64,000 nucleotides of DNA from a virus. Of this stretch, positions 1,857-23,409 are shown in pieces (position 1 is the stretch's first letter; the number at the start of each line of letters is the position of its first letter). The DNA lies in the IMG/VR virus record IMGVR_UViG_3300034105_001970. One strand, given 5' to 3'. The translations under genes and the position numbers were made by a program. The notes beneath the pieces are model-generated. The model was not told the DNA's origin, did no database searches, and worked only from the letters and a program-made list of their open reading frames with translations.

Positions 1857-3260
1857 ATGGCAAAAAAGAAAATCCTGTTATTGGCAGATGATTTAAGAAT
1901 GAGTAGTGGTATTGCTAATATGAGTAAACAATTAGTAATGGGTTCACTACAACACTATGATTGGGTTCAATTGGGTGCAGCAGTAACACATCCAGAAGAA
2001 GGTAAAATTTTAGATTTATGTGATGATGTTCGTGGTAGAACCGGAATTGAAGATGCATATCTAAAAATTTATCCATCAACAGGGTATGGAACGGCAGAAA
2101 AGTTAAGACAAATATTAGAAATTGAAAAACCTGATGCTATTCTACACTTTACAGACCCGAGATATTGGATATGGTTATATGATATTGAACATGAAATCAG
2201 ACAACATACACCAATATTCTTTTACCACATTTGGGATGATTTACCAGACCCTAAGTACAATAGAGATTACTACGAAAGTTGTGATTGGATAGGTACTATT
2301 TCAAAACAAACATTTGGTATTACAAATAGAGTTTGGAGTTTAACCTCAAAAGATAGATGGAAACAACCTGAAAATTGGCAAGTGAGTTATGTACCACATG
2401 GTATTAATCCGGAAGATTATAAAGTAGCAGATGTACCTGCCGATTTCAAAAAGAAAATATTTGGGGATAAAACATATGATTTCGTATTGTATTGGAGTAA
2501 TAGAAATATCAGACGAAAACAACCGATTGAAGTTATATACGCATTCAAAGAATTTGTAGCAACACTTTCACCTGAGCAAGCTAAAAAGACCGTATTGTTA
2601 ATGCATACCCAACCGGTGGATGATAATGGTACAGATTTACCTAGAGTTATTGCAGATTGTGCACCTGAAATCAATGTAGTATTTGATACAGGTAGATGGA
2701 ATGAAACTGAATTAAACTATCTTTATAATATTGCAGATGTTACAATTAATATAGCATCTAACGAAGGATTTGGATTAGCAACTGCAGAATCTATTATGGC
2801 AGGAACACCAATTATAGTAAATGTAACGGGTGGTATACAAGACCAATGTGGATTTGTATTCCAAAATGAAGATGTGCATGGCAATTGGGATTATACAAGA
2901 CCATCGGATTATGTTAAGTGGGGTACTCTACATGATTGGAGATTATGGAAAGATAAATTAAAGTGGGGAGATTGGGTAACACCGGTTTGGTCAACATCTC
3001 GTTCATTTACAGGTTCAGTACCTACACCTTATATATTTGAAGACCATATTGATTATGTTGAAGTAGCAGATTCAATCCGTCATTGGTATGATATGAGTAG
3101 AGAACAAAGAAAAGAAAAAGGAATATTAGGTAGAGATTTTGCACTAGGAGTTGGTGGATTAAGTGTACAAAATATGTGTCAAACTTTAATCAATGGAATG
3201 GATGGTGCATTTACGAATTGGAAACCTAGAAAAAAATACGAATTATTCAAAATAAAATAA
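1857..3260 (+). CDS. glycosyltransferase, GT4 (GT-B) family
   Basis: NEGFGLATAESIMAGTPIIVNVTGG matches the GT4 E-x7-E/EGFG motif; preceded by TAAGTTATG junction. Confidence 0.7.
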   Translation: MAKKKILLLADDLRMSSGIANMSKQLVMGSLQHYDWVQLGAAVTHPEEGKILDLCDDVRGRTGIEDAYLKIYPSTGYGTAEKLRQILEIEKPDAILHFTDPRYWIWLYDIEHEIRQHTPIFFYHIWDDLPDPKYNRDYYESCDWIGTISKQTFGITNRVWSLTSKDRWKQPENWQVSYVPHGINPEDYKVADVPADFKKKIFGDKTYDFVLYWSNRNIRRKQPIEVIYAFKEFVATLSPEQAKKTVLLMHTQPVDDNGTDLPRVIADCAPEINVVFDTGRWNETELNYLYNIADVTINIASNEGFGLATAESIMAGTPIIVNVTGGIQDQCGFVFQNEDVHGNWDYTRPSDYVKWGTLHDWRLWKDKLKWGDWVTPVWSTSRSFTGSVPTPYIFEDHIDYVEVADSIRHWYDMSREQRKEKGILGRDFALGVGGLSVQNMCQTLINGMDGAFTNWKPRKKYELFKIK

Positions 3261-3263
3261 GTT

Positions 3264-4553
3264 ATGGCAGAAATTAAAAAACCTTTAGTAGTAGTTCAAG
3301 GACCGGTAGCAACGCGAAGTGGTTACGGAGACCATAGTAGAGATTTAGTTAGAAGTTTAATTAGTTTAGATAAATACGATATTAGAATTGTATCAATGAG
3401 ATGGGGTAGTACTCCTATGAATGGTCTAAATGCAAAAAATGATAGTGATAAACAAATCATAGATAGAATTGGATTACCTATTGATAGAACACCCGATGTG
3501 TTTATTCAAATTACAGTTCCTAATGAATTTGAAAGAAAAGGAACATATAATATCGGTATTTCAGCAGGTATAGAAACAACGGTTTGTCCTATTGATTGGA
3601 TACATGGTTGTAATAAAATGGATTTGATTATAGTTCCATCTGAATTTTCTAAAGATGTATTAATAAAAACATCGTATGTAGAAAAAAATAATCAAACACA
3701 ACAAGTTATTAATAATTTCAAAATTACAAAACCAATTGAAGTTCTATTTGAAGGATTTAATGATGCAACATTTGGTGCGGCAGAAGTTCCATATATTACG
3801 GAATTAGATGCAATCAAAGAAGAGTTTGCATTCTTAATTACCGGGCACTGGTTACAAGGTCAATTAGGACATGATAGAAAAGATATTGGAATGACAATCA
3901 AAAGTTTTTGTCACGCTTTTAGTAATGAAAAACAAAAACCAGCATTGGTATTAAAAACATCATCCGCTGGGTTTAGTGTAAGAGATAGAGAAGATATGGC
4001 GGGCAGAATAGAAACACTTACAAATGAATTTGGTGATAAGTGTCCTTCAATCTATTTACTACATGGTGATTTAACTGAAACCGAAATGCATGGGTTATAT
4101 GAACATCCAAAAGTAAAAGCAATGGTATCATTTACACATGGTGAGGGATTCGGCAGACCTCTATTAGAATTCAGTTTGACGGGTAAGCCGGTAATTGCAT
4201 CTAATTGGAGTGGTCATTTAGATTTCTTAAAAAGTGGTGCAGTATTATTAGAGGGTGAATTAAAACCCGTAGATAAATCGGCACAAAATCAATTTATTAT
4301 AGATGGTAGTCAATGGTTTTATGTAAATTATTCTAATGCAATTAATAAGTTAAAAGATATTTATAAGAACTACAACACATATAAAGTTGAATCTAAAAAA
4401 TTGGGTAAGTATAATAACGAAAATTTTAGTTTACAAAAAATGACTAAATCATTTGACACTATTTTAACTCAATATGTTCCAACAATAAAACAATTTATAC
4501 CATTGAATTTACCAACCCTTACTAAGATAAATGAATCAGATACATCATTATAG
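3264..4553 (+). CDS. glycosyltransferase, GT4-like
   Basis: HGEGFGRPLLEFSLTGKPVIASNWSG motif near C-terminus; starts 4 nt after upstream stop. Confidence 0.55.
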   Translation: MAEIKKPLVVVQGPVATRSGYGDHSRDLVRSLISLDKYDIRIVSMRWGSTPMNGLNAKNDSDKQIIDRIGLPIDRTPDVFIQITVPNEFERKGTYNIGISAGIETTVCPIDWIHGCNKMDLIIVPSEFSKDVLIKTSYVEKNNQTQQVINNFKITKPIEVLFEGFNDATFGAAEVPYITELDAIKEEFAFLITGHWLQGQLGHDRKDIGMTIKSFCHAFSNEKQKPALVLKTSSAGFSVRDREDMAGRIETLTNEFGDKCPSIYLLHGDLTETEMHGLYEHPKVKAMVSFTHGEGFGRPLLEFSLTGKPVIASNWSGHLDFLKSGAVLLEGELKPVDKSAQNQFIIDGSQWFYVNYSNAINKLKDIYKNYNTYKVESKKLGKYNNENFSLQKMTKSFDTILTQYVPTIKQFIPLNLPTLTKINESDTSL

Positions 4554-5076
4554 AAAATATTTTTATAAAGAAATAGTAACCTCTATTAATGAAGTTAAGA
4601 ATGGCGGATTTTATAGATTATATGGTTACAAATATGAAGATACAGGAGTAAGTGAATCATATAGTGCCGCAACAACCCCATTGTTATTGGTATTAGGTAA
4701 AAATTCACAAAAAGGATTGATACATTGTATAAAATTAAATGAACTACCATTAACTAGATTTTTAAAATTATATGATGATATTCAAAACCAAGCATACACT
4801 CGTGAATTAATTAAAGAAATCGAAGATAAAGATGCAACGTTTAATGAAAATTTAGGATATGACACGGGTAGGAAAGCAATCTTAATTGATAAAAGTGGTA
4901 GAACCTTTTATAAAAAATCAGTTAAAAATAATAGAGATTTGCAAAAATATGATGTATATCGCACTTACAAAAAGAAAAATGTAAAGATGATTAAAGAGTT
5001 GTATTTTGATGTATCTAAACTAAAACCAAAATTAGGATTCAAAAATTTTAATACAGATGAACAAGAAATAATATAA
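4531..5076 (+). CDS. hypothetical protein
   Basis: 181-aa ORF overlapping upstream gene end by 23 nt; no recognisable motif. Confidence 0.35.
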   Translation: MNQIHHYRKYFYKEIVTSINEVKNGGFYRLYGYKYEDTGVSESYSAATTPLLLVLGKNSQKGLIHCIKLNELPLTRFLKLYDDIQNQAYTRELIKEIEDKDATFNENLGYDTGRKAILIDKSGRTFYKKSVKNNRDLQKYDVYRTYKKKNVKMIKELYFDVSKLKPKLGFKNFNTDEQEII

Positions 5077-5077
5077 T

Positions 5078-5704
5078 ATGAAAATAAGTTATGCAATTAC
5101 GGTTGTAAATGAAATAAAAGAAATACAAACATTATTACCACTACTAATAGAAAACAAAAGAGAAGTAGATGAAATTGTTGTTCAATATGATAATCAAAAA
5201 GTGACGGTTGAAGTACTTGAATATCTTAATGATTTGACATTTGACAAAAAAATTGATAAAACAATTGGATATCCTCTGAATGGAGATTTTGGAACATACA
5301 AACAACATCTTACACAAAATTGTACGGGTGACTGGATATTCCAATTAGATGCAGACGAAACAATAGACCCAATATTAATACAGGGATTATCAAATATATT
5401 AGAAGGTAATGATACTATTGAAATGTTTTTTATTCCTAGAATTAATATAGTGAATGGATTAACAGAATCACATATTCAAAAATGGAGATGGAATGTAAAT
5501 GAGAAAGGATGGGTAAATTTTCCTGATGTTCAAGGTAGATTATATCAAAACAAACAATCTATTTTTTGGGCAGGTAAAGTACATGAACAATTACAGGGAT
5601 TTGAAAGTTATACAATATTTCCACAAGATGAAACATATTGTATTAAACACATTAAAGAAATAGAAAGACAAGAAAAACAAAATGCTCTTTACGAAACGTT
5701 ATAA
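5078..5704 (+). CDS. glycosyltransferase-like (GT-A/GT2-like fold)
   Basis: N-terminal beta-alpha (ISYAITVVNE..IVVQYD) and QLDADE DxD-like motif. Confidence 0.4.
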   Translation: MKISYAITVVNEIKEIQTLLPLLIENKREVDEIVVQYDNQKVTVEVLEYLNDLTFDKKIDKTIGYPLNGDFGTYKQHLTQNCTGDWIFQLDADETIDPILIQGLSNILEGNDTIEMFFIPRINIVNGLTESHIQKWRWNVNEKGWVNFPDVQGRLYQNKQSIFWAGKVHEQLQGFESYTIFPQDETYCIKHIKEIERQEKQNALYETL

Positions 5705-6186
5705 TGAATTGGATAATTTTCACAACCGAATGTAGTGGTAAAACAACATTTTGTTCACTAAACAATAATAAATTAAAAGATTATGATTTAGTGGATTGGG
5801 ATGTGATAAAAGCATTACCAAATGGTGAATATGAAAATGAAATATTATTAATAGATGTTATGTTAGAATTGGTTAATAAAGATAATCAGATTTATTTAAC
5901 AAATATATTTCCACCAAACTTTATATTAGAGTGTAAACATTATTATAAAAATATTAAATTTGGAATAATTAATTTGAAAGAAGAAGAATTAAAAATACAA
6001 ATTAAAAGTAGACATAACCCAAATTATAATTCAAATTACATTATTGAAAAAAATAATGAATTAAAAAAAATAGTTGATAAAAAAAATACATTTAAAAGTT
6101 TTAAAAGTTTTAAAGAATTTAAAGAATATTTTGAACCATCATTAATTAATATCAAACCGATGGTACAAAGAATAATAAGATTATGA
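5704..6186 (+). CDS. hypothetical protein with imperfect P-loop
   Basis: N-terminal IIFTTECSGKTTF resembles Walker A but lacks the first Gly; ATGA overlap with neighbours. Confidence 0.3.
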   Translation: MNWIIFTTECSGKTTFCSLNNNKLKDYDLVDWDVIKALPNGEYENEILLIDVMLELVNKDNQIYLTNIFPPNFILECKHYYKNIKFGIINLKEEELKIQIKSRHNPNYNSNYIIEKNNELKKIVDKKNTFKSFKSFKEFKEYFEPSLINIKPMVQRIIRL

Positions 6187-6824
6187 AAGAAGTAAGTGTA
6201 GTTTGTACAAGTTGTAATAGACCAGATTTGTTAGAGAAAACATTAGAAAGTTTTTTCAAATATAACACATATCTAATTACCGATTTCAATGTAATTGATG
6301 ATAGTGCTGTAATTGGTTGTAATGACCATTTAAAAGAAAAATTCCCATCGGTAAGTTTTTGGTACAACAAAACTAATATAGGACAAGTTGCAAGTATAGA
6401 TAAAATGTATGGATATGTAATTACTCCGTATGTTTTTCATATGGAAGAAGATTGGGAATTTTACAAAGAAGGATTTATAGAAGCTTGTTTAGAAATTATA
6501 GATTTAGATGATAAGATTATTTGTGTTCAAACAAGAGACCCAAATGATATAGGGCATCCACTTTTACCTGATGTATATTTAACTCCAATGGGAAATAAAG
6601 TACAAAGAGTAAGTTGGGGATTTGATGGACATTGGCACGGATTTACATTCAATCCTGCACTAAAGAAAATGAAAGATTATCCAGAAGATGGGTATAAACC
6701 AATAGGTAGAGAATTAGAATTAAGTAAATATTATTATTCATTAGGATACTTTGCTATGGCATTTACAGAAGGATATTGTAAGCATGCTGGGTGGGGTAGA
6801 CACATAAAAGATGTAGGCGAATGA
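6183..6824 (+). CDS. glycosyltransferase family 2-like
   Basis: VSVVCTSCNRPDLLEKTLESF and VIDDS (DxD) as in GT2 N-termini. Confidence 0.45.
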   Translation: MKEVSVVCTSCNRPDLLEKTLESFFKYNTYLITDFNVIDDSAVIGCNDHLKEKFPSVSFWYNKTNIGQVASIDKMYGYVITPYVFHMEEDWEFYKEGFIEACLEIIDLDDKIICVQTRDPNDIGHPLLPDVYLTPMGNKVQRVSWGFDGHWHGFTFNPALKKMKDYPEDGYKPIGRELELSKYYYSLGYFAMAFTEGYCKHAGWGRHIKDVGE

Positions 6825-7939
6825 GTTACGAATTAAAAGACATTTCAGTAGTAATACCAAGTTATAATAACTTAGAGTATTTAAAATTAGTATATAAATC
6901 AGTTAGAGATATTTCTGACGATATTGAAGTTATACTATATGGGGATGGGTGTAATGATGGAACAAATGAATGGTTATTATCATTAAAACATACAAATACA
7001 ATTACCCACATATATAGTGAAAAACTTGGACATCCTGTTTTATACGATTATGGATTTCAAATAGCAAGTAGACCTGTAATAGGGATTTTGCACGCAGATA
7101 TGATAGTTCACAAAAATTTCTTTGAGAATATTTTGAAGTATGTGGGAACAAATAAAATCGTATGTGGTATGTGTGTAGAGCCACCAATTCATCCAGCAGG
7201 TAAGGAAAAATATCAATTAGATGCAGGTACATATCCAAATGAGTTTAATCAATCTAAGTTTGATGAGTTCTATGAAACGATAGAAAAAAATACAACTAAC
7301 AATGGTATATTTGCACCTTGGTTTGTATTGAAAGATGAGTACATTAATATATTAGGTGGACACGATACAAATTTTCAAACAATCGAAGATGTTGATATTT
7401 TTCATAGAATGGTAATTGGTGGATTTGATATTATACAAAGTAGAGATGCATTAGTTTATCATTTTACACAAAGAGGGCATAAATTTGAAGGTGGTGATTT
7501 ACAAAAAGTACAAGATGATTATCAAAGTAGAATAGATACCGATACAAAAAAATATATTAGAAAATGGGGGTGTATATGGTATTTTGATATAAATCACAAA
7601 CCAATTCCAATGCCAAAATATAACATTGGGTTAATCATTTATAATGCACCACAAGATTTAGTTATATTTTTAGAACCATACTTTACAACTATATACACTA
7701 ATAATTTGGGTCAAGTTGAGGGTGTTAGTAAGTTAAAAGATATTAATGATGAACTTACCAATGATAGTTTTGTGACAATAAATGCAGAACATCTAACAAA
7801 CGAAAACATAGAATTTTTAATGAAAGTACCATATGTATTAAAACAAAATACACAAATTGGGCAATTCAAAATAGATATATTTAATCTATATATAAAAAAC
7901 TACAATGAATATCAGAATGAATTAATTAAAGTAAATTAA
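6821..7939 (+). CDS. glycosyltransferase family 2
   Basis: ISVVIPSYNNLEYLKLVYKSV...EVILYGDGCNDGT is the canonical GT2 signature. Confidence 0.65.
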   Translation: MSYELKDISVVIPSYNNLEYLKLVYKSVRDISDDIEVILYGDGCNDGTNEWLLSLKHTNTITHIYSEKLGHPVLYDYGFQIASRPVIGILHADMIVHKNFFENILKYVGTNKIVCGMCVEPPIHPAGKEKYQLDAGTYPNEFNQSKFDEFYETIEKNTTNNGIFAPWFVLKDEYINILGGHDTNFQTIEDVDIFHRMVIGGFDIIQSRDALVYHFTQRGHKFEGGDLQKVQDDYQSRIDTDTKKYIRKWGCIWYFDINHKPIPMPKYNIGLIIYNAPQDLVIFLEPYFTTIYTNNLGQVEGVSKLKDINDELTNDSFVTINAEHLTNENIEFLMKVPYVLKQNTQIGQFKIDIFNLYIKNYNEYQNELIKVN

Positions 7940-9845: not shown

Positions 9846-9887
9846 TATTTATATTATAGTATTAACCCCCTTAAATACACAAAAACA

Positions 9888-10208: not shown

Positions 10209-10267
10209 GTTCAATATTAATAACGAAATCAGGGCCTAAATGGACGGTGATAGTATAATACTAAAAA

Positions 10268-10486
10268 ATGGAAAAACAGACAAAAAAGAGAATAACTGTT
10301 TTAAAAGATACATCACTAATGTTAGCGATGTTCTTTCTACCACTGGGTTACGATGCACTATTCAAACTAATGATGGAATTGACAGGTTCGTATTGGGGAG
10401 CAGACGTTATCTTTTACTCAATTTCAGGTTGTTTTTGGTTATCTTATATATTACTTACACGATATTTAAATAAACATCCTAAATGA
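10268..10486 (+). CDS. small membrane protein, 2 TM (holin-like topology)
   Basis: Two hydrophobic helices; ATGA overlap with next gene; preferred over overlapping frame 10240..10473. Confidence 0.3.
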   Translation: MEKQTKKRITVLKDTSLMLAMFFLPLGYDALFKLMMELTGSYWGADVIFYSISGCFWLSYILLTRYLNKHPK

Positions 10487-10803
10487 TACTTTTGAAAAAT
10501 TTATTAAATGAAGTTGTAACAAATAAAGAAATAATTTGTGACAAATGCAAGTGGTCTTGGGATATTATAGACGGTGGAAAAAATATCTATGTTTGTCACA
10601 AGTGTGGACATGATAATAAAAAAGTAAATGAAGAAGATGGACATGAAAACGATAGAGATATGGTAGTGGGTGTTGCAGAAATTGTGCATATGATTAGAGA
10701 TATGAAAAATAGAGAAGAAGTATTGCATTCTATGATTGAAAAATTCAATAAAGAGAATGTTATTTATAATAGAGGTGAATTTACAAAAATGTGTGGACTA
10801 TGA
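10483..10803 (+). CDS. zinc-ribbon protein
   Basis: CDKC...CHKCGH four-Cys ribbon near N-terminus. Confidence 0.4.
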   Translation: MILLKNLLNEVVTNKEIICDKCKWSWDIIDGGKNIYVCHKCGHDNKKVNEEDGHENDRDMVVGVAEIVHMIRDMKNREEVLHSMIEKFNKENVIYNRGEFTKMCGL

Positions 10804-11615
10804 TAAAGTTAAAAGATTTGTTAGAAGATACAGGTAAGCATTTAAATACAGGTCTTTCCGATACTGAAAAAACCGAAGCAGAACGTGATTTTAATCAACA
10901 TCACGCTACATCTACATACACTAAACATATGGGAGTACCTGCGGAAAAACATACCGTAGATTCTGATGATGGTGAACCAAATGAACCTGGTGCACAACAT
11001 TTATATAATAAAAACAAAGACAAAATAGATAGAGGATATGAGCCGGTTGATGGACATATTGAAGATGATAAGTTGAATGTAAAGGAATCAATGTTATTAA
11101 GAGATTTAATGGCAGAAGATAAGAAATTAAGAATATTTGATTTCGATGATACATTAGTAAAAACAAAATCATTTATTTTTGTAACACATAGAGGTGGAAA
11201 AAAATCTAAATTAAGTCCTGGGGAATATGCAGTTTATACACCAAAACAAGGTGACCAATTTGATTTTTCAGATTTCAACAATGTAAACGAACCCGAACAA
11301 ATACTGGGTTATACAAAATTACTTAAAAGATTTGTAAGTAGTGAAGGGGAACGTAGAGTAACTATATTAACTGCTCGTTCAGCATATGCACCTGTTAAAC
11401 AATACTTAAAAGATATTGGTATGGGTAGTATCTATGTAATGGCATTAGGTGATGCAGACCCACAAAAGAAAGCAAAGTACATTGAGGATATGATTAAAAA
11501 GGGATATGATGATATATTCTTTATAGATGATTCCCAAAAAAATATATCAGCAGTACAACAATTAGAAAAAAAATATCCAAACGTTAAATTTAGAATACAA
11601 TTAGCTAAGCTTTAA
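10791..11615 (+). CDS. HAD-superfamily phosphatase-like
   Basis: Motif I RIFDFDDTLV, motif II ILTARS, K..IFFIDDS motif III/IV. Confidence 0.45.
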   Translation: MWTMIKLKDLLEDTGKHLNTGLSDTEKTEAERDFNQHHATSTYTKHMGVPAEKHTVDSDDGEPNEPGAQHLYNKNKDKIDRGYEPVDGHIEDDKLNVKESMLLRDLMAEDKKLRIFDFDDTLVKTKSFIFVTHRGGKKSKLSPGEYAVYTPKQGDQFDFSDFNNVNEPEQILGYTKLLKRFVSSEGERRVTILTARSAYAPVKQYLKDIGMGSIYVMALGDADPQKKAKYIEDMIKKGYDDIFFIDDSQKNISAVQQLEKKYPNVKFRIQLAKL

Positions 11616-11653
11616 TTTGGTAATATAGTTTTTATTTATTAAATTAGTTATAT

Positions 11654-12415
11654 ATGAAAGGAATAAAGTTTTGGACAAAAGATGGTTTTGATGTTGCTAC
11701 CTGTAAATGGCGACTACACGAACGAGTTAATCAAAAATTTAATGGAAGTGGTTCAGACCAAAGTGGCAACTGCTGGTATACCTATAATGAATTAGGATAT
11801 AGAGGTGATTCTATTTACAAAGATGGATTTAGAATTATGAGTATTGGTGATTCACACACCGAAGGTGTTGGTGTTAACGATGAGGAAACATGGTCACATC
11901 AATTATGTAAACTTATACCGGGTGCAGTAGATTTGAATTTTGGATTTGGTGGTAGAAGTAATGACTATATTTTCAGATGTTTACAAACTTACTTTAAAAC
12001 AGCAAGACCACAATTAGTTAATATAATGTATACATATCCATCTCGAAAAGAATATTATACAGGTACTGGTGACTTAGAACCATTTCACGTTAATCCTTGG
12101 GGATATTTTTTAGAGGATGATTTGGGCAAAAAAGAGCATGCTGGTTTTTTAGAAATTACACAAGATGAAAATGATTTAATTAATTGGTATAAAAATCATC
12201 TATTGATTACATATTTTTGTAAATTAAATAATGTTCCTATGGTATGGAATGGTAGTTTCTTAAATGATACTACAATTAAGGAAGAAAATAGATTTGATGG
12301 TGATTATGACAATTTCATAGATAAATCGGCAGATATAAAACACGCTGGAGCAGAGCATAATAAAAAATATGCTAAAAAGTTGTATAATTTCTTAAAACAA
12401 AACGATGTCATTTAA
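11654..12415 (+). CDS. SGNH/GDSL-hydrolase-like paralogue
   Basis: IMSIGDSHTEGVGV block I and C-terminal GAEHNKKYAKKL. Confidence 0.35.
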   Translation: MKGIKFWTKDGFDVATCKWRLHERVNQKFNGSGSDQSGNCWYTYNELGYRGDSIYKDGFRIMSIGDSHTEGVGVNDEETWSHQLCKLIPGAVDLNFGFGGRSNDYIFRCLQTYFKTARPQLVNIMYTYPSRKEYYTGTGDLEPFHVNPWGYFLEDDLGKKEHAGFLEITQDENDLINWYKNHLLITYFCKLNNVPMVWNGSFLNDTTIKEENRFDGDYDNFIDKSADIKHAGAEHNKKYAKKLYNFLKQNDVI

Positions 12416-14929: not shown

Positions 14930-15568
14930 ATGAAAAAATTAGTATTACTTGTTACGATTTGTGTATTTTTTGCAATAGGTGGTAGAGCACAAGATGTAGT
15001 TATTTTGAAACATACAAACTATACATCACATTTTAGTAAGTCAAAAAAATATCCAGTAATGGTAGAGTGGTGGGAAACTAAAGCAAAAGTTGGTTGTCCA
15101 AATCCATTACCTAGAAGAGATGCATTTCAGCCAGACCCACAAGCAATACTTGAAACCGATATTAAAGCAGACTATGTAGGTAGTGGATATGATAGAGGAC
15201 ATATGAGTCCTGCAGCATCCAATCAATGTCAAACGGCAGGTGTTCAAATTGAATCGTTCTATATGAGTAATATGTCGGCACAAACACATAGACTAAATGC
15301 AGGAGATTGGAAATCATTAGAAGTAATGACTAGAGAGTGGGCAGTGAAAGATGATTCGGTTCATATATGGGCAGGTAATGTGGGAGAGATAAAAAAGATA
15401 GGTAAAGTATCAGTTCCAAAACAATGTTGGAAAGTGGTTTACTATAAAAAATCAAATGAATGGATGGCTTTCTTATTTGAGAATGACCAATCTAAACCCG
15501 ATGGAATATATAATAACAAAGTTGAATTAGTTGATATAGAAAAATTGACTGGGTTGAAGTTTAAATAA
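14930..15568 (+). CDS. secreted DNA/RNA non-specific endonuclease (His-Me finger, Serratia NucA family)
   Basis: Signal peptide MKKLVLLVTICVFFAIGGRAQ; catalytic YDRGHMSPAASNQ (DRGH) motif. Confidence 0.75.
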   Translation: MKKLVLLVTICVFFAIGGRAQDVVILKHTNYTSHFSKSKKYPVMVEWWETKAKVGCPNPLPRRDAFQPDPQAILETDIKADYVGSGYDRGHMSPAASNQCQTAGVQIESFYMSNMSAQTHRLNAGDWKSLEVMTREWAVKDDSVHIWAGNVGEIKKIGKVSVPKQCWKVVYYKKSNEWMAFLFENDQSKPDGIYNNKVELVDIEKLTGLKFK

Positions 15569-16465: not shown

Positions 16466-16467
16466 TT

Positions 16468-16707
16468 ATGGCAACTGAAACAAACCCGATAGTAGTTCTT
16501 AAAAGAATTGCACCTGGAGATAGATGGGTATTTGCAGATAGAAAAACAACAATTTATCCATCACTTACCGATGCATTAGAAGCGTATTATCAAGTTAATG
16601 GTGATACACAATATTTTATAGATGCAAGAGATGGGACAGTTAGTGTGTTTGAAGTTAAAGAATACGATGAACCAATAAAAACATTCTCATTATATGGTGA
16701 AGACTGA
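16468..16707 (+). CDS. hypothetical small protein
   Basis: 79-aa ORF, 2-nt spacing from upstream. Confidence 0.35.
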   Translation: MATETNPIVVLKRIAPGDRWVFADRKTTIYPSLTDALEAYYQVNGDTQYFIDARDGTVSVFEVKEYDEPIKTFSLYGED

Positions 16708-17062
16708 TAATAATTATAAAACCATCTTTTCTGATATAGATGGTACTTTAATAGAGCAAGTTAGATTTGAAGATTTAGACCCAAATGTAGTGACTGTACT
16801 ACCGGGTGTTAGTGAAAAAATGAATGAATGGTATGAAGCCGGCCATCACATTGTATTAACTACGGCTCGTCCTTGGGATTTAGAATTGATAACTAAAATG
16901 CAAATGATAACCGCTGGTATTCGTTATCATCAATTATTAATGGGTATTGGTAGACAAGAACGATACTTAATTAATAATAGTGAAAAACTAACACCGGATG
17001 TAAGTAGAGCAATTGGAATCTCAGTAAAAAGAGATGAAGGCTTTGGGAATATTACAATATGA
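16694..17062 (+). CDS. small HAD-like phosphatase (candidate heptose bisphosphate phosphatase, GmhB-like role)
   Basis: IFSDIDGTLIE motif I and VLTTARP motif II; translationally coupled to the HldC-like gene. Confidence 0.4.
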   Translation: MVKTDNNYKTIFSDIDGTLIEQVRFEDLDPNVVTVLPGVSEKMNEWYEAGHHIVLTTARPWDLELITKMQMITAGIRYHQLLMGIGRQERYLINNSEKLTPDVSRAIGISVKRDEGFGNITI

Positions 17063-17475
17063 TAAAAGTTTGGGTAAACGGAACATTTGATATAGTCCAT
17101 TTAGGACATGTTCAGCTCTTAAAGAAAGCAGCCGACTTAGGCGATTTCCTAATCGTAGGACTTGATGGTGATAAACGAGTTAAAGAATTAAAAGGTGAAC
17201 AAAGACCTATAAATAATTTAGTAAGTAGAATTACACTATTAGAGGCTATTAGATATGTAGATAGAGTTGTAGCATTTGATTCAGATGAGCAATTAGAAAC
17301 ACTTATCAAAACCATGAGACCTGCAATAATGGTTATAGGTGAGGAATACAAAGGTAAAAAAATTATAGGAAGTGAATATGTTGGTGAAATTGTATATTTT
17401 CCTAAAATGGAAGGATTCAGTTCTACTAATGTTATAAATCAATTATATAATGGCAAAGGTAACGGAGTGTTGTAA
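17059..17475 (+). CDS. nucleotidyltransferase, RfaE domain II / HldC-like (heptose-1-phosphate adenylyltransferase family)
   Basis: VWVNGTFDIVHLGH (HxGH), KELKGEQRPI, RYVDRVVAF, GEEY, EGFSSTN align along the whole length with RfaE-II/TagD cytidylyltransferases. Confidence 0.75.
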   Translation: MIKVWVNGTFDIVHLGHVQLLKKAADLGDFLIVGLDGDKRVKELKGEQRPINNLVSRITLLEAIRYVDRVVAFDSDEQLETLIKTMRPAIMVIGEEYKGKKIIGSEYVGEIVYFPKMEGFSSTNVINQLYNGKGNGVL

Positions 17476-17812
17476 AATACCAAAAGGTTGGGGACATGAA
17501 TTAATAATCTACAATGATGAAAAATATTGTGGAAAAGTATTAGTGTTTAAAGAAGGATGTAAGTTCTCTATGCATTATCATATGTTGAAACAAGAAACTT
17601 GGTATGTAAACAAAGGTAGTTTTATTTACAAATGGATAGATACTGAACGAGGGATTACCGAAGAAACTACTTTAAAGGTAGGAGATGTAGTTACTCAATA
17701 TCCAGGACAACCACATCAATTGATAGCATTAGAAGATGGTGAAGTATTTGAAGTAAGTACGGAACATTTTGATTCAGATAGTTATAGAATATACAAAGGT
17801 GATATATTATGA
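17450..17812 (+). CDS. cupin-domain protein (possible sugar isomerase/epimerase)
   Basis: G-x5-HxH-x4-E-x6-G (GCKFSMHYHMLKQETWYVNKG) and second cupin motif GDVVTQYPGQPH. Confidence 0.5.
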   Translation: MAKVTECCKIPKGWGHELIIYNDEKYCGKVLVFKEGCKFSMHYHMLKQETWYVNKGSFIYKWIDTERGITEETTLKVGDVVTQYPGQPHQLIALEDGEVFEVSTEHFDSDSYRIYKGDIL

Positions 17813-18126
17813 GTTTTATAATTACGTCTAGTTGTATCAGTTGTATCGATGGTGGGTGTTTAAAAGTTTGTCCTATGGATTGTATACATGGACCGATAAA
17901 TACGACAGGAATGGGATTAGAATCGATTGGAATGAGTGATGAGGATAAGAAAGGTAAACAATTATACATAAATCCAATAGAATGTATAGATTGTAGTGCT
18001 TGTTTACCGGAATGTCCCGTTGATGCCATTGTTTCTAGTGAGGAAATAGCTATACAAATGGGTGAGCGTCAATCAGTTATCGATAATTACGCATTTTTTG
18101 GGTTAAAATATTTGGAAAATCAATAA
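17809..18126 (+). CDS. 4Fe-4S dicluster ferredoxin-like protein
   Basis: CISCIDGGCLKVCP and CIDCSACLPECP cysteine motifs. Confidence 0.6.
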   Translation: MSFIITSSCISCIDGGCLKVCPMDCIHGPINTTGMGLESIGMSDEDKKGKQLYINPIECIDCSACLPECPVDAIVSSEEIAIQMGERQSVIDNYAFFGLKYLENQ

Positions 18127-18653: not shown

Positions 18654-18662
18654 TTTATATAA

Positions 18663-18689
18663 AGGGGATAAGAAATTATCCCCTTTTTT
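18663..18689 (+). terminator. intrinsic terminator
   Basis: GGGGATAA-GAAA-TTATCCCC perfect 8-bp stem with GNRA-like loop then TTTTTT. Confidence 0.7.
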
Positions 18690-18706: not shown

Positions 18707-19144
18707 ATGATTAAATGGAAACGTGATATGCAAGAGAGTTACAATTTATATTTAGATGATATTAGAGAACCTAAAGCATCCTTTAAAAAAAGTGGTGATA
18801 GTAGGTATAAAGATTTAAAATGGAAAGTAGTTAGGTCTTATGGTGAATTTATAGGAACAATCGCACTTAATGGCCTCCCTAATATTGTATCGTTTGACCA
18901 CGATTTAGGTGAGGAACATATAAACTACTATTTTGATAATGGTGGTAGAGAAAATCCACCTGACCCATTAAAAGCAGATTTCAAAGAAAAAACGGGATAT
19001 GATTGTGCAAAATGGTTAATTGAATATTGTAGTGAAAATGGTTTACCAATGCCTACATATTTAATACATTCAGCAAATCCGGTAGGTGCTGAAAACATTA
19101 GGTCTATATTGAATAGATACAACGAAATACACCAATTTACCTAA
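18707..19144 (+). CDS. hypothetical protein
   Basis: 145-aa ORF; stop followed at +4 by 13-nt palindrome ATTGATAATCAAT. Confidence 0.4.
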   Translation: MIKWKRDMQESYNLYLDDIREPKASFKKSGDSRYKDLKWKVVRSYGEFIGTIALNGLPNIVSFDHDLGEEHINYYFDNGGRENPPDPLKADFKEKTGYDCAKWLIEYCSENGLPMPTYLIHSANPVGAENIRSILNRYNEIHQFT

Positions 19145-19856: not shown

Positions 19857-22001
19857 ATGAGTTGGTATGACAGTTTTAAGACGGGTACTTTAGATTATTT
19901 AACTAAAGGTTCGTACACTAGTAAAAAGAAAGAGAAAAAATCAGCGAGTTCATTTTGGGCTGATGAATGGAGTTCCTATGACACACCTACTACATATTGG
20001 GGTGGTGATACTTGGAAACCAAAAGAGTACAATAAGGTAGAAAGCAGTACTGCTGACCTTATTAAGTTGAATGCACATAGGAGAGCAATTGCTAACTTTG
20101 TGAACATTCTTACAAACAAAAACATTCCTGTAAAGTTTTCGCGTAAAGGTGATTCTTATACTGATGGTAAATCGGTAGTATTATCAGCTGAGGTTAAACC
20201 TGAAAAGTTTGATATCGCGGTAGGTTTGGCATTGCACGAAGCATCACACATTGTTCTTACGGACTTTGAATTAATGCCTGCTTATTCTGCACCAACCGAA
20301 ATGTTTAATAACTTTGCAAAAGCAGCGGGTTTAGATGTAAATGACCCTTCTTTTGATGGTACACAACATTATCGAAACAAAGAACAATTATTTGATGTAG
20401 TTAAATCATTGGTAAACTTTGTAGAGGATAGAAGGATTGACCAATATATCTACAATACTTGTCCAGGTTATAGAGACTATTATAGAGCATTGTATGATGA
20501 GTATTTCTATGATAAGACTATTGACAAAGGATTGATAAGTGATGAATATACGGATGAAACATTACAATCGTATATGTTCCGTATTATCAATATCACAAAT
20601 CAAAATACTGACCTTAACAAATTGAAAGGTTTGAAAGAAATCTACGAAACATTAGACCTTAAGAATATTAGTAGATTAAAAAATACAACCGATTCATTAG
20701 AGGTAGCAGAAAAGATTACCAACACTATCTTACAACATATCTTAGTTGATTTAAGTAAAGATGGTAAAGGTAAGGGTAATGGTGACCCTGCAGATGTAAA
20801 CGAAGCAGGTAATGAAACTGGAGCAGAGGCAGGTGATAAACAAAACGATGAAATGGGTGGTAGTGGTGGTGATGCACCTGTGATGGGTGAGAAAGGTGAC
20901 TCTACGAGTGGTGCTTCACAAACTGGTAATGGTAAAGATTTAATGAGTGATACTGCTAAGAAACAATTGGATAAACAAATCCAAAAGCAAAAGGACTTCG
21001 TTAATAACAATATCAAAAAGAAAGGATTAACTAAGAAAGAGGATGAAACCTTAGACCAAATGGCTGAGAGTGGAACTGAAATGCAATCCGTAGGTGATAC
21101 TAAATTAGAGAATGGTGGATATATTCAACCGGTTCAATGTATCGTATCTAAGAAAATGACCGAAGGATTGATGCAAGATAGTTCGTTCCCTTTCGCTAGT
21201 TTTTGGAATGATAAATGGAATAACTGGAATGCTGATACTTTACAAAGAGGTATCGTAATGGGTACTATTTTAGGTAAGCGTATTGCAGTTCGTAGTGAGG
21301 AAAGAGAAACAATCAATCCACGCCAAAAGAATGGTAGAATTGATAAGAGAATGGTAGCGGCATTAGGATATGATTATGTAAATGTATTCAGTACCAAAGA
21401 AGTAGATAGGTTTAAGAAAGTAATGTTGCACGTTACTATTGATGGTAGTGGTTCAATGAGTGGTAGTGTGTGGGATGATACATTAGCCGTAACAATTGCT
21501 ATTTGTAAAGCAGCATCAATGGTAAGTAACTTAAATGTACAAGTTTCTATCAGAGGTACGTGGGGTGATAAACCTTACATATGTATTGCGTATGATAGTA
21601 GATTTGATAAGTTTGAGAAAGTTAAGAGATTGTTTCCTGCATTACACGCCAATGGTACAACACCTGAAGGTTTATGTTATCAAGCGATACTTAAACATTT
21701 TGTAGAGAGCAACAAAGATATGGATTCTTATTTCTTAAACATATGTGATGGTGAGCCAACATTCTCAAATCAACAATGTTCTTATAGTGGTAGAAACGCT
21801 TTGTTACACACTAAGAAAATGGTAGGACAAATCAAAGATATGGGTATACAAGTTATGAGTTACTTTGTTGGTGGCAGTTCATATAGTAGTTCATCTGACA
21901 ACTTTAAAACAATGTACGGAAGTGACAGCCGTTTTATTGATGTTAAACAAATCGTTCCTATCATTAAAACAATGAATGAGCTTTTTATGAAAAAAGCGTA
22001 A
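19857..22001 (+). CDS. VWA-domain protein, CobT-like partner of MoxR-type AAA+ ATPase
   Basis: C-terminal MIDAS HVTIDGSGSMSG; central Gly/Asp/Lys-rich acidic low-complexity region; adjacent to the AAA+ gene. Confidence 0.6.
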   Translation: MSWYDSFKTGTLDYLTKGSYTSKKKEKKSASSFWADEWSSYDTPTTYWGGDTWKPKEYNKVESSTADLIKLNAHRRAIANFVNILTNKNIPVKFSRKGDSYTDGKSVVLSAEVKPEKFDIAVGLALHEASHIVLTDFELMPAYSAPTEMFNNFAKAAGLDVNDPSFDGTQHYRNKEQLFDVVKSLVNFVEDRRIDQYIYNTCPGYRDYYRALYDEYFYDKTIDKGLISDEYTDETLQSYMFRIINITNQNTDLNKLKGLKEIYETLDLKNISRLKNTTDSLEVAEKITNTILQHILVDLSKDGKGKGNGDPADVNEAGNETGAEAGDKQNDEMGGSGGDAPVMGEKGDSTSGASQTGNGKDLMSDTAKKQLDKQIQKQKDFVNNNIKKKGLTKKEDETLDQMAESGTEMQSVGDTKLENGGYIQPVQCIVSKKMTEGLMQDSSFPFASFWNDKWNNWNADTLQRGIVMGTILGKRIAVRSEERETINPRQKNGRIDKRMVAALGYDYVNVFSTKEVDRFKKVMLHVTIDGSGSMSGSVWDDTLAVTIAICKAASMVSNLNVQVSIRGTWGDKPYICIAYDSRFDKFEKVKRLFPALHANGTTPEGLCYQAILKHFVESNKDMDSYFLNICDGEPTFSNQQCSYSGRNALLHTKKMVGQIKDMGIQVMSYFVGGSSYSSSSDNFKTMYGSDSRFIDVKQIVPIIKTMNELFMKKA

Positions 22002-22022
22002 AAACACACTAAAACTTAACTA

Positions 22023-22035
22023 ATTGATTATCAAT
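22023..22035. promoter_or_regulatory. 13-nt perfect palindrome ATTGATTATCAAT (operator-like)
   Basis: Located 22 nt after the stop of the VWA gene; 21-nt context shared with 19148 copy. Confidence 0.4.
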
Positions 22036-22097
22036 GTGTTATACATTACCCTAAATGGATGTGTATAATGTGTTGATATTCAATAGGTTATAAATAG

Positions 22098-22130
22098 TTT
22101 TGGTAGTGTGGGCAGAATTTCGTATCTTTA
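22098..22130 (+). promoter_or_regulatory. Bacteroidota-type promoter
   Basis: TTTGGTAG -33, 21-nt spacer, TATCTTTA. Confidence 0.5.
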
Positions 22131-22176
22131 TGATATATCAAACAATAATTAAACAATAAACATTAAAAATTCAGTT

Positions 22177-23409
22177 ATGAGTAAAAAAGCAACACAAGAG
22201 TATGGTTACACAAATGAAGTGTACAAAGTAGAAAATCTTAAATCCCGTTTTAACTTAGTTAATACTGCGGGTGATGTATTAAGTAGTTCAGATTCTACAA
22301 TAGTAGGTAGTTCTTTACGAAAAAAAGCATCAGCACAAAATAAAGCAATTCGTGCGCATGTAAACAAAAACGGAGCTAAAAGCTATCGTATGGTAGAAAT
22401 GCAAGAATATACGGATATGTTGGTTAAGCCGATGAATACGGATATCGCTGAAACTATCGTAGAAAATCCAACGGAGCATAAAGATGTTATCGATTTCATT
22501 CATAAAGAGGGTATGGCGTTAAAACCTGCTAACTTAATTATGAACGAGTTGAAGTGGAAATATTTATTACGTTCAGCGGTTCGAGCGCGAAATATTATGA
22601 TGACAGGACCTGCGGGTAGTGGTAAGACAATGGCAGCTAAAGCATTAGTTGCGGCATTGAAAAGACCGTTTCATTACTTTAACTTAGGTGCGACGCAAGA
22701 CCCGAGGGCGGCATTAATTGGTAACACACACTTTAACAAAGCAAGTGGTACTTATTTTAGTGAGAGTGCATTCGTTAAAGCTATTAAGACACCTTACGCA
22801 GTTGTGTTATTAGATGAATTAAGTAGAGCTCATCCAGAAGCCGCTAATATCCTAATGACAGTGTTAGACCAAACACAAAGATACTTACGATTAGATGAGC
22901 AAGAAAATTCACCAATTGTTAAGGTGGCAGAAGGTGTTACCTTTATTGCAACTGCAAACATCGGTTCTGAATATACTGCAACGCGTGTAATGGATAGAGC
23001 ATTGTTAGATAGATTCGTGACAATTGAGGTAGATGTATTGAATGCTGAGCAGGAATATGAATTGTTAAAGATGTTATATCCTGATACGAATGATTACAAT
23101 TTGAAATCAGTAGCAGAGATTGCGGCACACACTAGAGACCAAATCAAAGGTGAGGCGGGTAAATTGACAACTGCTGTATCAACTCGTATTTCAGTAGAGA
23201 TGGCAGGTTTGTTGTATGATGGTTTCAGTTTGTTAGAAGCAGCTGAGGTAGCAATCTTCCCGTTCTATTCACAAGATGGTGGTATGGATAGTGAGCGTAC
23301 TTACATTAAGCAACTTATACAAAAATTCGTAGTAGATGAGAATGAAGGTGAAAAGTTATTCAACGAAGTGAAAGAGGAAGATGCGAATGACGATACTATT
23401 GTTTGGTAA
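22177..23409 (+). CDS. AAA+ ATPase, MoxR/CbbQ/CobS-like
   Basis: Walker A MMTGPAGSGKT, Walker B VVLLDELSRAHPEAANILMTVLDQ; pairs with upstream VWA gene. Confidence 0.7.
   Translation: MSKKATQEYGYTNEVYKVENLKSRFNLVNTAGDVLSSSDSTIVGSSLRKKASAQNKAIRAHVNKNGAKSYRMVEMQEYTDMLVKPMNTDIAETIVENPTEHKDVIDFIHKEGMALKPANLIMNELKWKYLLRSAVRARNIMMTGPAGSGKTMAAKALVAALKRPFHYFNLGATQDPRAALIGNTHFNKASGTYFSESAFVKAIKTPYAVVLLDELSRAHPEAANILMTVLDQTQRYLRLDEQENSPIVKVAEGVTFIATANIGSEYTATRVMDRALLDRFVTIEVDVLNAEQEYELLKMLYPDTNDYNLKSVAEIAAHTRDQIKGEAGKLTTAVSTRISVEMAGLLYDGFSLLEAAEVAIFPFYSQDGGMDSERTYIKQLIQKFVVDENEGEKLFNEVKEEDANDDTIVW

Follow-up and report, generated by a model that had tools for sequence, protein, structure and literature searches.

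In bacteria, ADP-L-glycero-beta-D-manno-heptose is produced by a pathway comprising GmhA, HldE (or HldA plus HldC), GmhB and HldD. Phage-encoded routes to activated sugars have also been described. Phages RB69, DLP3 and HY126 make UDP-arabinose by means of an isomerase, an anomeric kinase, a small 1xpj-like HAD and a nucleotidyltransferase, the sugar being a pentose and the acceptor 5-hydroxycytosine in DNA (AfhE/AfhF; PMC13326640). In a metavirome system ("contig 53"), a HAD-kinase, a PF01467-type cytidylyltransferase-like enzyme and a glycosyltransferase put heptose on 5hmC DNA (bioRxiv 10.1101/2023.12.21.572611), which shows phages to be capable of both producing and using NDP-heptose. Finally, the T4-like cyanophage gene clusters GC304–308 (P-SSM2, S-SM2, P-TIM68, S-CAM1 and others) contain genes labelled nucleotidyltransferase, carbohydrate kinase, "phosphoheptose isomerase", "cysteine dioxygenase" and nucleotide-sugar epimerase.

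The DNA analyzed here, referred to as the window, is a 64-kb stretch of a genome that measures about 230 kb and belongs to a freshwater jumbo-phage lineage. The phage is uncultured, and when the region was compared by megablast with 50,697 phage records, no match was obtained. The five open reading frames of the original prediction, with their overlapping start and stop codons, were confirmed at their positions. The relevant features are the following:

1857..7939, + strand: five glycosyltransferase genes (two GT4-like, three GT2), with Pfam Glycos_transf_1, GT4-conflict and Glycos_transf_2 matches
16694–17062, + strand: miniature capless HAD phosphatase, 122 aa; proposed sugar-1,n-bisphosphate distal phosphatase (GmhB-like role)
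17059–17475, + strand: HldC-like (RfaE domain II-like) sugar-1-phosphate nucleotidyltransferase, 138 aa
17450–17812, + strand: small metal-binding cupin, 120 aa; proposed ketose/aldose phosphosugar isomerase (functional GmhA substitute)
17809–18126, + strand: FdxA-type (7Fe pattern) ferredoxin, 105 aa; adjacent backbone gene, judged to lie outside the sugar module
29573–29977, + strand: P134, an all-alpha, hyperconserved protein of 134 aa; module-linked
47644–48375, + strand: short HldA-like (RfaE domain I-like) PfkB sugar-phosphate kinase, 243 aa

The transferase, kinase, cupin and HAD were assigned to PHROGs 7878 (E 3e-42), 8133 (E 5e-79), 7851 (E 1e-38) and 1238 (E 2e-10), respectively, and thus all four families of the module are encoded in the window. 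The similarities found for the five proteins go far beyond what chance would give. The same four families are found in the cyanophage clusters GC304–307, with 40–50% identity to the window proteins for the transferase, the kinase and the cupin; there the genes are contiguous, accompanied by an HldD-like SDR and contained within larger sugar clusters, whereas in the window they occupy three sites and are accompanied by P134. The gene set is not new in kind, as it is already annotated as heptose or LPS genes in cyanomyoviruses and pelagimyophages. We assign a probability of about 0.6 to the reading that the window genes make up a dispersed copy of a mobile phage pathway of four enzymes leading to an NDP-sugar, in which the cupin and the HAD would replace GmhA and GmhB.

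The nucleotidyltransferase had been predicted to align with RfaE domain II, a placement with TagD being the outcome that would count against it. Its best-scoring model was TIGR02199 (rfaE_dom_II; 123.2 bits, E 7e-36, model positions 14–142 of 144), 39 bits above the TagD model (84 bits), the score being lower than the equivalog cutoff of TIGR02199 (123.2 vs. 181.5 bits). Pairwise comparison gave 41% identity over 134 aa (96.7 bits) to residues 343–475 of E. coli K-12 HldE and 34% identity (78.6 bits) to B. subtilis TagD, and PF01467 (67.6 bits) indicated the cytidylyltransferase-like fold. Residues H14-x-G16-H17 and S121/T123 are kept across 25 phage homologues, and the motifs HxGH, KGxxRPxN and SST are conserved in the family; KGxxRPxN is common to the phage enzyme and HldE and is absent from TagD. 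By these sequence comparisons the transferase is closest to HldE domain II rather than to TagD-type cytidylyltransferases.

The kinase was likewise expected to align with RfaE domain I and not to fall into a ribokinase or fructokinase clade. An end-to-end alignment was obtained with TIGR02198 (rfaE_dom_I) at 116.8 bits, compared with 34 bits for ribokinase, the value being below the cutoff of the model (345 bits); PfkB (49.7 bits) indicated the fold. With 243 aa against about 310 aa for the full-length domain, the protein is some 70 aa shorter than HldA; its alignment with residues 13–303 of E. coli HldE (26% identity) includes 60 gap columns and shows that much of the HldA lid is missing. HldA (4e84) was the only solved structure matched, and the family profile scored 97.7 bits to it versus 46.9 bits to the best ribokinase. 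The conserved residues include N153/E156 (NxxE), G201-A-G-D204 (GAGD) and P24-E-x-P-x-P29, which corresponds to the HldA-type N-terminal PE(A/G)PVP motif. As judged from these scores and motifs, HldE domain I is the nearest relative of the kinase.

A profile search of the transferase against PDB structures ended in a tie between HldC and TagD, and weak NMNAT-type matches were also found. Together with the 34% identity to TagD, the dispersal of the genes over 31 kb and the occurrence of the cupin in a podophage lineage with neither transferase nor kinase, paired there with an AAA_28 (NadR-type) kinase, these results would fit genes that do not form one pathway, the transferase being a TagD/ECT-like cytidylyltransferase for an alditol or amino-alcohol phosphate and the kinase and HAD being unrelated enzymes of nucleoside or NAD salvage. 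We consider this highly improbable in view of KGxxRPxN, a motif of the HldE type that is missing from TagD, of the kinase and transferase genes that directly adjoin or overlap at dozens of phage loci, a close relative of the window phage among them, and of the fusion of the two enzymes in the phage locus L160.

The HAD protein has kept its nucleophile motifs, with DxDGT (motif I) and T-A-R (motif II) invariant. The allele present in the window is substituted in motifs III and IV, with GR for the KP and NN for the (D/C)D of the other module HADs. Similarity was restricted to weak generic HAD-IIIA/IIB and 1xpj matches; no match to a GmhB model was obtained for this protein, and E. coli GmhB as query gave 0 matches, both in the window and in about 240 viral loci. 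In a near-identical strain the HAD allele is precisely exchanged for a 33%-identical one, the subgroup to which the window HAD belongs lies away from the module in other phages, and many loci with cupin, transferase and kinase have no detectable HAD. Co-occurrence and fusion with module partners place a small HAD in the module, and membership of the GmhB family was not supported by sequence; the GmhB-like role proposed here comes from the genetic context.

The original prediction had noted the absence of a GmhA/SIS isomerase. In agreement with it, no SIS/GmhA Pfam match was found among the window ORFs scanned, and a phmmer search with E. coli GmhA against all window ORFs of at least 60 aa gave 0 matches. 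GmhA homologues were also absent from the cyanophage records carrying the kinase and the cupin. A set of 7,983 ORFs, taken from the window together with about 240 viral loci, contained homologues of HldA, HldC and HldD, three of the five canonical enzymes, and none of GmhA or GmhB. Since both homologues are absent and the cupin and the HAD are the remaining proteins of the module, these two would fill the GmhA and GmhB steps.

The cupin scored above the Pfam threshold for Cupin_2 and carries a canonical and invariant metal-ligand motif (H42/H44/E49/H89); its AF2 model has a pLDDT of 88. The score against PF07385 was just under threshold (20.1 vs. 20.8 bits), and that against PF01050 was 18.2 bits (cutoff 23.6). 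The family profile retrieved the D-lyxose isomerases 2y0o (E 8e-6) and 7nzo (E 3e-5) with an extended alignment and with N- and C-terminal signatures in common. The H-x-H...E...H site, "YCxKxL", "KxET" and the C-terminal "E(V/F)S" are common to the cupin, the D-lyxose/D-mannose ketol-isomerases of PF07385 (2y0o, 7nzo) and the archaeal cupin PMI 7zvy, the latter, with 110 aa, being close to it in size. Identity is only about 20–24%, and the substrate proposed for the cupin is a phosphorylated heptulose in place of a free pentose or hexose. The Foldseek neighbours included lyxose isomerase, the 110-aa archaeal PMI and the CapF cupin domain; structural comparison alone does not separate isomerase, epimerase and oxygenase for this protein, and the profile-sequence search was more discriminating.

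The CapF cupin domain among the top structural matches, and a weak WbuC match, bear on the possibility that the cupin is not an isomerase but an NDP-4-keto-sugar epimerase or ketoisomerase (split CapF/WbuC-like) acting after activation, with the host GmhA performing the isomerization. The bacterial cupin lying next to Gmd is also compatible with such an enzyme, in bacteria and in T4-like phages an SDR is usually found beside the cupin, and several SDRs surround the module in large phage clusters. However, the similarity to lyxose isomerases extends past the cupin core and is stronger than that to CapF (8e-6 and 3e-5 vs. 1.6e-3), and the metal site, which is invariant here, has no counterpart in RmlC-type epimerases. 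The SDR found next to the phage cupin resembles HldD, an enzyme that works without a cupin partner; in the window no SDR was found, the presence of the cupin notwithstanding. The fusion of the cupin to a HAD in another phage points to the phosphosugar stage. As regards the supply of isomerized substrate by the host, many marine cyanobacterial hosts reportedly contain no heptose in their LPS. A post-activation epimerase is therefore unlikely. On the ketol-isomerase signature and the fusion to a HAD beside a full-length HldE and an HldD-like gene, the cupin is most likely the missing sedoheptulose-7-phosphate isomerase and not an epimerase; of the two activities originally offered for it, the D-lyxose/mannose isomerase signature agrees with isomerase, and an RmlC-type epimerase is not favoured. 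Within the literature covered, a search for a cupin-type sedoheptulose-7-phosphate isomerase, or for a characterized phage HldE/ADP-heptose pathway, returned nothing relevant.

The combination of HldA-like kinase, HldC-like transferase, small HAD and cupin proved to be a recurrent, mobile phage module, found in T4-like cyanophages, pelagiphage-like contigs and freshwater jumbo phages and often accompanied by an HldD-like epimerase. The full set of four families is also present in S-SM2 and P-TIM68. Among the records listed, all 30 of the 30 kinase-bearing phages had the cupin; conversely, 80 cupin loci contained the transferase in 42 cases and the kinase in 41, usually directly adjacent. The cupin itself occurs in at least 581 IMG/VR contigs, and its metagenomic homologues number in the thousands. 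In L160 the HAD and the cupin form a single polypeptide; its neighbours are an HldD-like SDR and a fused HldE of full length, which is 32% identical to the E. coli protein (202 bits). The proposal that a pair of HldE domains, a HAD and a cupin belong together was sustained by co-occurrence in many phages and by this fusion, the set not being unique to the window. In the cyanophage records, where the label "phosphoheptose isomerase" corresponds to the HAD and "cysteine dioxygenase" to the cupin, both names appear to be misnomers.

In the T4-like copies, the SDR beside the cupin scored 182 and 207 bits against TIGR02197, compared with 50 bits for GalE, the values being below the TIGR02197 cutoff (274.6 bits); with E. 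coli HldD as query, up to 174 bits were obtained for phage SDRs. Since an HldD-type C6 epimerase is sensible only on a heptose, the presence of these SDRs beside the cupin points to a heptose as the sugar. The bacterial homologues of the cupin are found in GDP-mannose/fucose clusters (Gmd, 534 bits; fcl-like SDR; WcaI-like GT) and, in the bacterial loci L192 and L204, 3–4 kb from a fused HldE. Both settings fit a role as isomerase of a manno-type phosphosugar.

The GDP-mannose/fucose setting, together with the fact that the nearest characterized relatives of the cupin isomerize mannose, lyxose or mannose-6-phosphate, would also fit if the same chemistry served another sugar, for example a hexose or other aldose (fructose-6-phosphate to mannose-6-phosphate, beta-mannose-1,6-bisphosphate, beta-mannose-1-phosphate and ADP- or CDP-mannose), with no heptose product in this phage. 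All the enzymes score below the heptose equivalog cutoffs, and no HldD-like gene was found in the window. Because these scores are those of divergent relatives, substrate specificity may differ. Against a non-heptose product stand the HldD-like SDRs embedded in the module of many other phages, the kinase, which is far closer to the heptose-7-phosphate kinase than to any other relative, and the association of the cupin, by fusion or as a neighbour, with a canonical HldE in L160, L192 and L204. Another sugar is thus considered improbable, and ADP-heptose is most likely the product that the gene set would make, as suggested by these homologies.

With ADP-heptose as the predicted product, the order of reactions would be the same as in bacteria. 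The cupin would isomerize a ketose phosphate to a manno-configured aldose phosphate in place of the SIS-type GmhA, the short HldA-like PfkB kinase would phosphorylate the anomeric carbon, the miniature HAD would remove the distal phosphate in place of GmhB, and the HldC-like transferase would form the NDP-sugar, which glycosyltransferases encoded elsewhere in the genome presumably use on some acceptor. Substrate, nucleotide, cupin reaction, acceptor and downstream use are given here as we infer them. Compared with the bacterial pathway, the kinase is a homologue of HldE domain I (26% identity to the E. coli sequence) and the transferase of domain II (41%), and the places of the SIS-type GmhA and of GmhB would be filled by a metal cupin of 120 aa and a HAD of about 100–120 aa; many phage copies add an HldD-like epimerase, whereas the window copy lacks HldD and has its genes dispersed. 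The logic of isomerase, anomeric kinase, small HAD and nucleotidyltransferase is that of RB69, DLP3 and HY126, in which three of the four steps use other folds (SIS isomerase, APH-like kinase and NTP_transferase-type uridylyltransferase). The "contig 53" system differs in that an APH-like kinase is fused to the HAD and heptose-7-phosphate comes from E. coli; it is also linked with a T4 beta-GT-like DNA glycosyltransferase and with the synthesis of 5hmC, and no counterpart of either was found in the window.

Five genes at 16–18 kb and 47.6 kb had been described in terms of a translationally coupled cassette with a distant kinase. The junctions consist of a 14-nt overlap between the upstream gene and the HAD, an ATGA overlap between HAD and transferase, a 26-nt overlap between transferase and cupin, an ATGA overlap between cupin and ferredoxin, and an ATGA overlap between an upstream SGNH-like gene and the kinase. 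Over the whole window, 38 of 106 gene junctions overlap, 11 of them as ATGA; translational coupling was therefore rejected as functional evidence. Synteny with relatives showed that the transferase and the cupin are an inserted pair, so that, with the exchanged HAD allele and overlaps ordinary for the genome, the supposed cassette is better described as a mosaic. The kinase does lie 30 kb from the HAD, transferase and cupin, and the module is not contiguous here; this separation is a lineage-specific rearrangement, as a close relative has kinase, transferase and P134 adjacent, and in other relatives (L011, L024, L038 and others) the module genes are contiguous.

The ferredoxin had been included in the same operon. 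It shows the cysteine pattern CxxCxxxxCxxxCP...CxxCxxCxxxCP, which matches FdxA, and its match to NF045490 (57.8 bits vs. a cutoff of 135) was in two stretches. The gene is kept at the same site in syntenic relatives devoid of transferase and cupin (L046–48) and is missing from all other module loci, whatever the lineage. On these grounds of synteny a functional link to the module was rejected, and the ferredoxin is regarded as a backbone gene.

The five glycosyltransferases of the window are possible consumers of the activated sugar, which might serve the heptosylation of a glycan, a protein or DNA that had originally been suggested; none of them resembles WaaC or WaaF, and GT9 heptosyltransferases of this type were absent from the window and represented by one weak match in about 240 loci. 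No genes for DNA hypermodification (ThyA-like, TET, methyltransferase) or base hydroxymethylation were detected by Pfam among the ORFs of the window, that is, in 64 kb of the genome of about 230 kb. It is a doubtful extension of the proposed pathway that the cupin represents a new non-orthologous sedoheptulose-7-phosphate isomerase and forms, with the mini HAD, the lid-less HldA, HldC and, as a putative fifth component, P134, a virus-specific self-sufficient ADP-heptose pathway of abundant marine and freshwater phages, which would heptosylate phage DNA or the virion rather than host LPS.

If the proposed pathway is correct, the widespread "LPS-like auxiliary genes" of ocean and lake phages would constitute a defined, complete and host-independent NDP-heptose pathway built with two non-orthologous enzymes. 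The misleading annotations "cysteine dioxygenase" and "phosphoheptose isomerase" would be corrected and a new small isomerase family defined. What these phages glycosylate, whether virion, DNA or host envelope, would become directly testable, the four genes being small. P134, for which no known relative was found and which occurs in no isolated phage, is a further module-linked partner; it is more conserved than the enzymes encoded beside it and offers a separate and cheap target.

The five genes of the original prediction were recovered from the mechanical ORF list at the same coordinates, all on the + strand. These genes, together with a run of glycosyltransferase (GT) genes, are as follows:

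Genes of the original prediction and candidate users of the sugar product in the window
1857-7939, + strand, five consecutive GT genes, two GT4-like (one matching 'GT4 in conflict systems') and three GT2
16694-17062, + strand, small HAD protein
17059-17475, + strand, HldC-like nucleotidyltransferase
17450-17812, + strand, cupin
17809-18126, + strand, ferredoxin
47644-48375, + strand, PfkB kinase

The best NCBIfam model for the nucleotidyltransferase was rfaE_dom_II (123 bits, nearly the whole model covered), followed by TagD (84 bits). Pairwise comparison showed 41% identity (96.7 bits) with residues 343-475 of E. coli HldE versus 34% (78.6 bits) with B. subtilis TagD, and the KGxxRPxN motif was common to the nucleotidyltransferase and HldE. 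The kinase scored 117 bits with rfaE_dom_I versus 34 with ribokinase (NCBIfam), and a profile of 24 phage kinase homologues matched HldA (4e84) at 97.7 bits versus 46.9 for the best ribokinase. Its alignment with HldE residues 13-303 showed 26% identity and 60 gap columns, the PEAPVP, NxxE and GAGD motifs being all intact; it is a shortened HldA with part of the lid missing. The RfaE domain II and domain I assignments originally made for the two proteins were those of the closest models, although both proteins score below the curated equivalog cutoffs of 181.5 bits (nucleotidyltransferase) and 345 bits (kinase). Placement in the TagD or the ribokinase clade was also checked and in neither case seen, the rfaE models outscoring both. 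As judged from sequence, the two proteins are divergent relatives of the HldE domains and not certified orthologues.

The cupin family showed strikingly high conservation, with 70-80% identity among more than 100 metagenomic clusters, and has the canonical G-x5-H-x-H-x4-E-x6-G motif and the His of the second motif. These canonical ligands predict a metal site, which counts against an RmlC-type epimerase. A confident AF2 model (pLDDT 88) retrieved with Foldseek generic metal cupins, including D-lyxose isomerase (24% identity), the CapF cupin domain and KdgF, as well as a 110-aa archaeal phosphomannose isomerase. The relatives were better discriminated by the sequence profile, which matched the D-lyxose isomerases 2y0o (E 8e-6) and 7nzo (E 3e-5) in alignments taking in the N-terminal 'vNne-YC-K-L' strand, 'K-ET' and the C-terminal 'E(V/F)S'; CapF aligned over the core alone (1.6e-3). 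Bacterial cupins 43-50% identical to the phage protein were found in MAGs of Binataceae, delta-proteobacteria and planctomycetes, with Gmd (534 bits), an fcl-like SDR and a WcaI-like GT as neighbours. Such a GDP-mannose/fucose cluster is a setting in which one would expect a phosphomannose isomerase. Two further bacterial cases had the cupin 3-4 kb from a fused HldE. Of the two activities first suggested for the cupin, isomerase is thus favoured by the lyxose isomerase matches and RmlC-type epimerase disfavoured, and the protein is best seen as the putative missing isomerase of the pathway. The same cupin (about 65% identical) also occurs in a podophage-like lineage (L118:2727-5301 and some 30 IMG/VR loci like it, L106-L146), where it shows translational coupling with a P-loop kinase of the AAA_28 (NadR-type) family and has an FAD/NAD oxidoreductase upstream; the nucleotidyltransferase and the PfkB kinase are absent from these loci.

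The small HAD protein, a PHROG 1238 member, has invariant DxDGT and T-A-R motifs. Its sole solved relative, matched weakly (E 0.31), is the 126-aa protein 1xpj, to which the arabinose-bisphosphate phosphatases of RB69 and DLP3 are likewise reported to be most similar in structure (PMC13326640). HAD was not detected at many cupin-nucleotidyltransferase-kinase loci, and the window allele departs from the usual residues in motifs III/IV and belongs to a subgroup found apart from the module in other phages. In a near-identical strain (93-97% nucleotide identity in both flanks) homology breaks at the ends of the HAD ORF (window 16710-17057), and a different small HAD, 33% identical in protein sequence, is present (L041:5299-5609). 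The swap between the two strains is a precise allele replacement.

E. coli GmhA, GmhB, HldD, HldE, WaaC and WaaF served as queries against the ORFs of the window and of about 240 viral loci, 7,983 in all. HldE gave 208 matches, HldD 156 and WaaF a single weak one; GmhA, GmhB and WaaC gave none in this set, in agreement with the earlier remark that no GmhA was recognised in the window. GmhA was likewise not found in any cyanophage record carrying kinase and cupin. Three of the five canonical steps therefore have homologues, and the two gaps coincide with two extra conserved proteins, the isomerase-like cupin and the phosphatase-type HAD. The SDR adjoining the cupin in T4-like modules scored 182 and 207 bits with TIGR02197 versus 50 with GalE, and E. 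coli HldD matched phage SDRs adjacent to the nucleotidyltransferase at up to 174 bits; since such an SDR would be an HldD-like C6 epimerase, the sugar should be a heptose. Most tellingly, a 110-kb viral contig (L160, IMG/VR 3300009159_003989) encodes HAD and cupin as a single 228-aa fusion protein (7644-8330, +). Convergent with it lies a full-length fused HldE (8368-9804, -; 202 bits and 32% identity to the E. coli protein across both domains), and an HldD-like SDR comes next (9895-10791, +). This locus would bring together five activities of the pathway in compact form, and it is the strongest pointer to the cupin and HAD filling the gaps.

On the strength of the recurrent homologues, the cupin and HAD in the gap positions and the L160 fusion, a route from S7P to ADP-D,D-heptose is proposed. 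The cupin would convert S7P to heptose-7-P, the kinase would form heptose-1,7-bisP, the HAD would release heptose-1-P and the nucleotidyltransferase would yield ADP-D,D-heptose. From the observed homologies, motifs, co-occurrence and fusion we infer the substrates, the nucleotide and the cupin reaction. All scores in the pathway assignments are sub-threshold. The original observation is confirmed and its interpretation partly supported; a heptose-nucleotide pathway is the preferred explanation (probability about 0.6), and the case for it is stronger now than as originally argued. In the window no HldD-like gene, GT9 heptosyltransferase or base-modification gene was seen, and the five GT2/GT4 genes are only candidate users of the product. 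Heptosylation of phage DNA has a precedent in a separate system (bioRxiv 10.1101/2023.12.21.572611), to which no feature of the window provides a link.

A tblastn search of 50,697 phage records found the kinase in 34 and the cupin in 35, all T4-like cyanophages or marine virus records, the one exception being a bacterial chromosome among the kinase matches; among the matches listed, the cupin was present in 30 of 30 kinase records. In S-SM2 and P-TIM68 the module genes are grouped (T4-like gene clusters 304-308) and labelled nucleotidyltransferase, carbohydrate kinase, "phosphoheptose isomerase", "cysteine dioxygenase" and nucleotide-sugar epimerase. The third and fourth of these RefSeq/PHROG labels appear to be misnomers, for the small HAD and the isomerase-like cupin, respectively, that are spreading via phage annotation. 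Cyanophage and pelagimyophage papers give such genes as heptose/LPS auxiliary genes, with no experiments. The cupin was found in at least 581 IMG/VR contigs, and the best 80 of these had the nucleotidyltransferase (42) and the kinase (41) within 8 kb, mostly directly adjoining, an SDR in 29 and HAD in 19, counts that are biased because module genes served as queries in collecting the loci. The window system is a new lineage's copy, here given a variant reading, of a module already present, uncharacterised, in known cyanophages.

The exception to this bias is a set of 79 loci seeded with P134, a 134-aa protein (window 29573-29977, +) that had no match in Pfam, PHROGs, NCBIfam, PDB or isolated phages and has more than 8000 metagenomic homologues. 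Within 8 kb of P134 these loci had SDR (63), kinase (32, of which 29 at no more than 2 kb), cupin (31), nucleotidyltransferase (28) and HAD (25), a common layout being SDRx3-P134-kinase-SDR-NT-HAD-cupin-SDR. Identity was at least 68% in each collected copy, above the conservation of the adjoining enzymes. The low-confidence model (pLDDT 66) showed four helices and a conserved, unstructured C-terminal tail, and its fold search was uninformative; P134 is a predicted all-alpha additional component within or beside the kinase/nucleotidyltransferase/cupin/SDR clusters of many phages. Large clusters with two or three SDRs, P134, kinase, SDR, nucleotidyltransferase, HAD, cupin and SDR were observed around 5000-12000 in each of L250, L254, L272, L276, L277, L290, L291 and L307. 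Their SDR content suggests further NDP-heptose tailoring (dehydration, epimerisation or reduction) in other lineage members.

The window is most closely related to uncultured jumbo phages of about 230-290 kb, whose sample names suggest a freshwater origin. Synteny with window 19.8-40.6 kb was seen in a 237-kb relative, which carries kinase (86%), nucleotidyltransferase (85%) and P134 (84%) mutually adjacent; at the matching window position the P134 gene alone is left. The 30-kb separation of kinase and nucleotidyltransferase pointed out earlier is therefore real in the window but a rearrangement; in other relatives the kinase is ~65 kb from the cupin-nucleotidyltransferase pair. In a more distant syntenic relative one HAD gene takes the place of window 16467-17807 (small ORF, HAD, nucleotidyltransferase and cupin), and the ferredoxin, which has the FdxA cysteine pattern, is kept with its flanks. 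None of the other lineages compared has a ferredoxin close to the module. By synteny, therefore, the ferredoxin is a backbone neighbour and the nucleotidyltransferase-cupin an inserted pair, so that the ferredoxin is rejected as a member of the system.

The overlapping junctions described for these genes were confirmed, with ATGA at HAD/nucleotidyltransferase, cupin/ferredoxin and upstream gene/kinase and 26 nt at nucleotidyltransferase/cupin. Overlap, however, is the norm in the window (38 of 106 junctions; ATGA in 11 of 106) and is therefore not informative on function, and the framing as a coupled cassette was abandoned. The only terminator-like hairpin near the cassette, a strong one, lies at 18661-18686. 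A stand-alone cREC_REC (cyclic-phosphate processing receiver) domain protein (18707-19144, +; E 1e-21) is encoded 3' of both.

Around the kinase, window 46206-50871 (+) holds a tandem array of four or five SGNH/GDSL-like paralogues ('FGDSFS' N-terminal, 'DGH' C-terminal), one member alone having a weak Pfam Lipase_GDSL match; glycan O-acyl esterase or transferase is a possible activity for them, and paralogues also occur near the module in the comparison loci L006, L014 and L031. The GT genes are preceded by a PD-(D/E)XK nuclease gene (731-1603). At 19857-23409 (+) a 714-aa protein with weak PHROG matches (one labelled 'cobalamin biosynthesis protein') is followed by a MoxR/AAA_5 ATPase, a pair conserved across relatives. 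Other genes, for nucleic-acid repair and processing, encode an ATP-dependent DNA ligase beside a HAD_SAK_2 ('Swiss-army-knife' RNA repair HAD) protein (39009-40646, +), a UvdE UV-endonuclease (58632-59501, 217 bits), and a DNA/RNA non-specific endonuclease (14930-15568) whose N-terminus appears to be signal-like.
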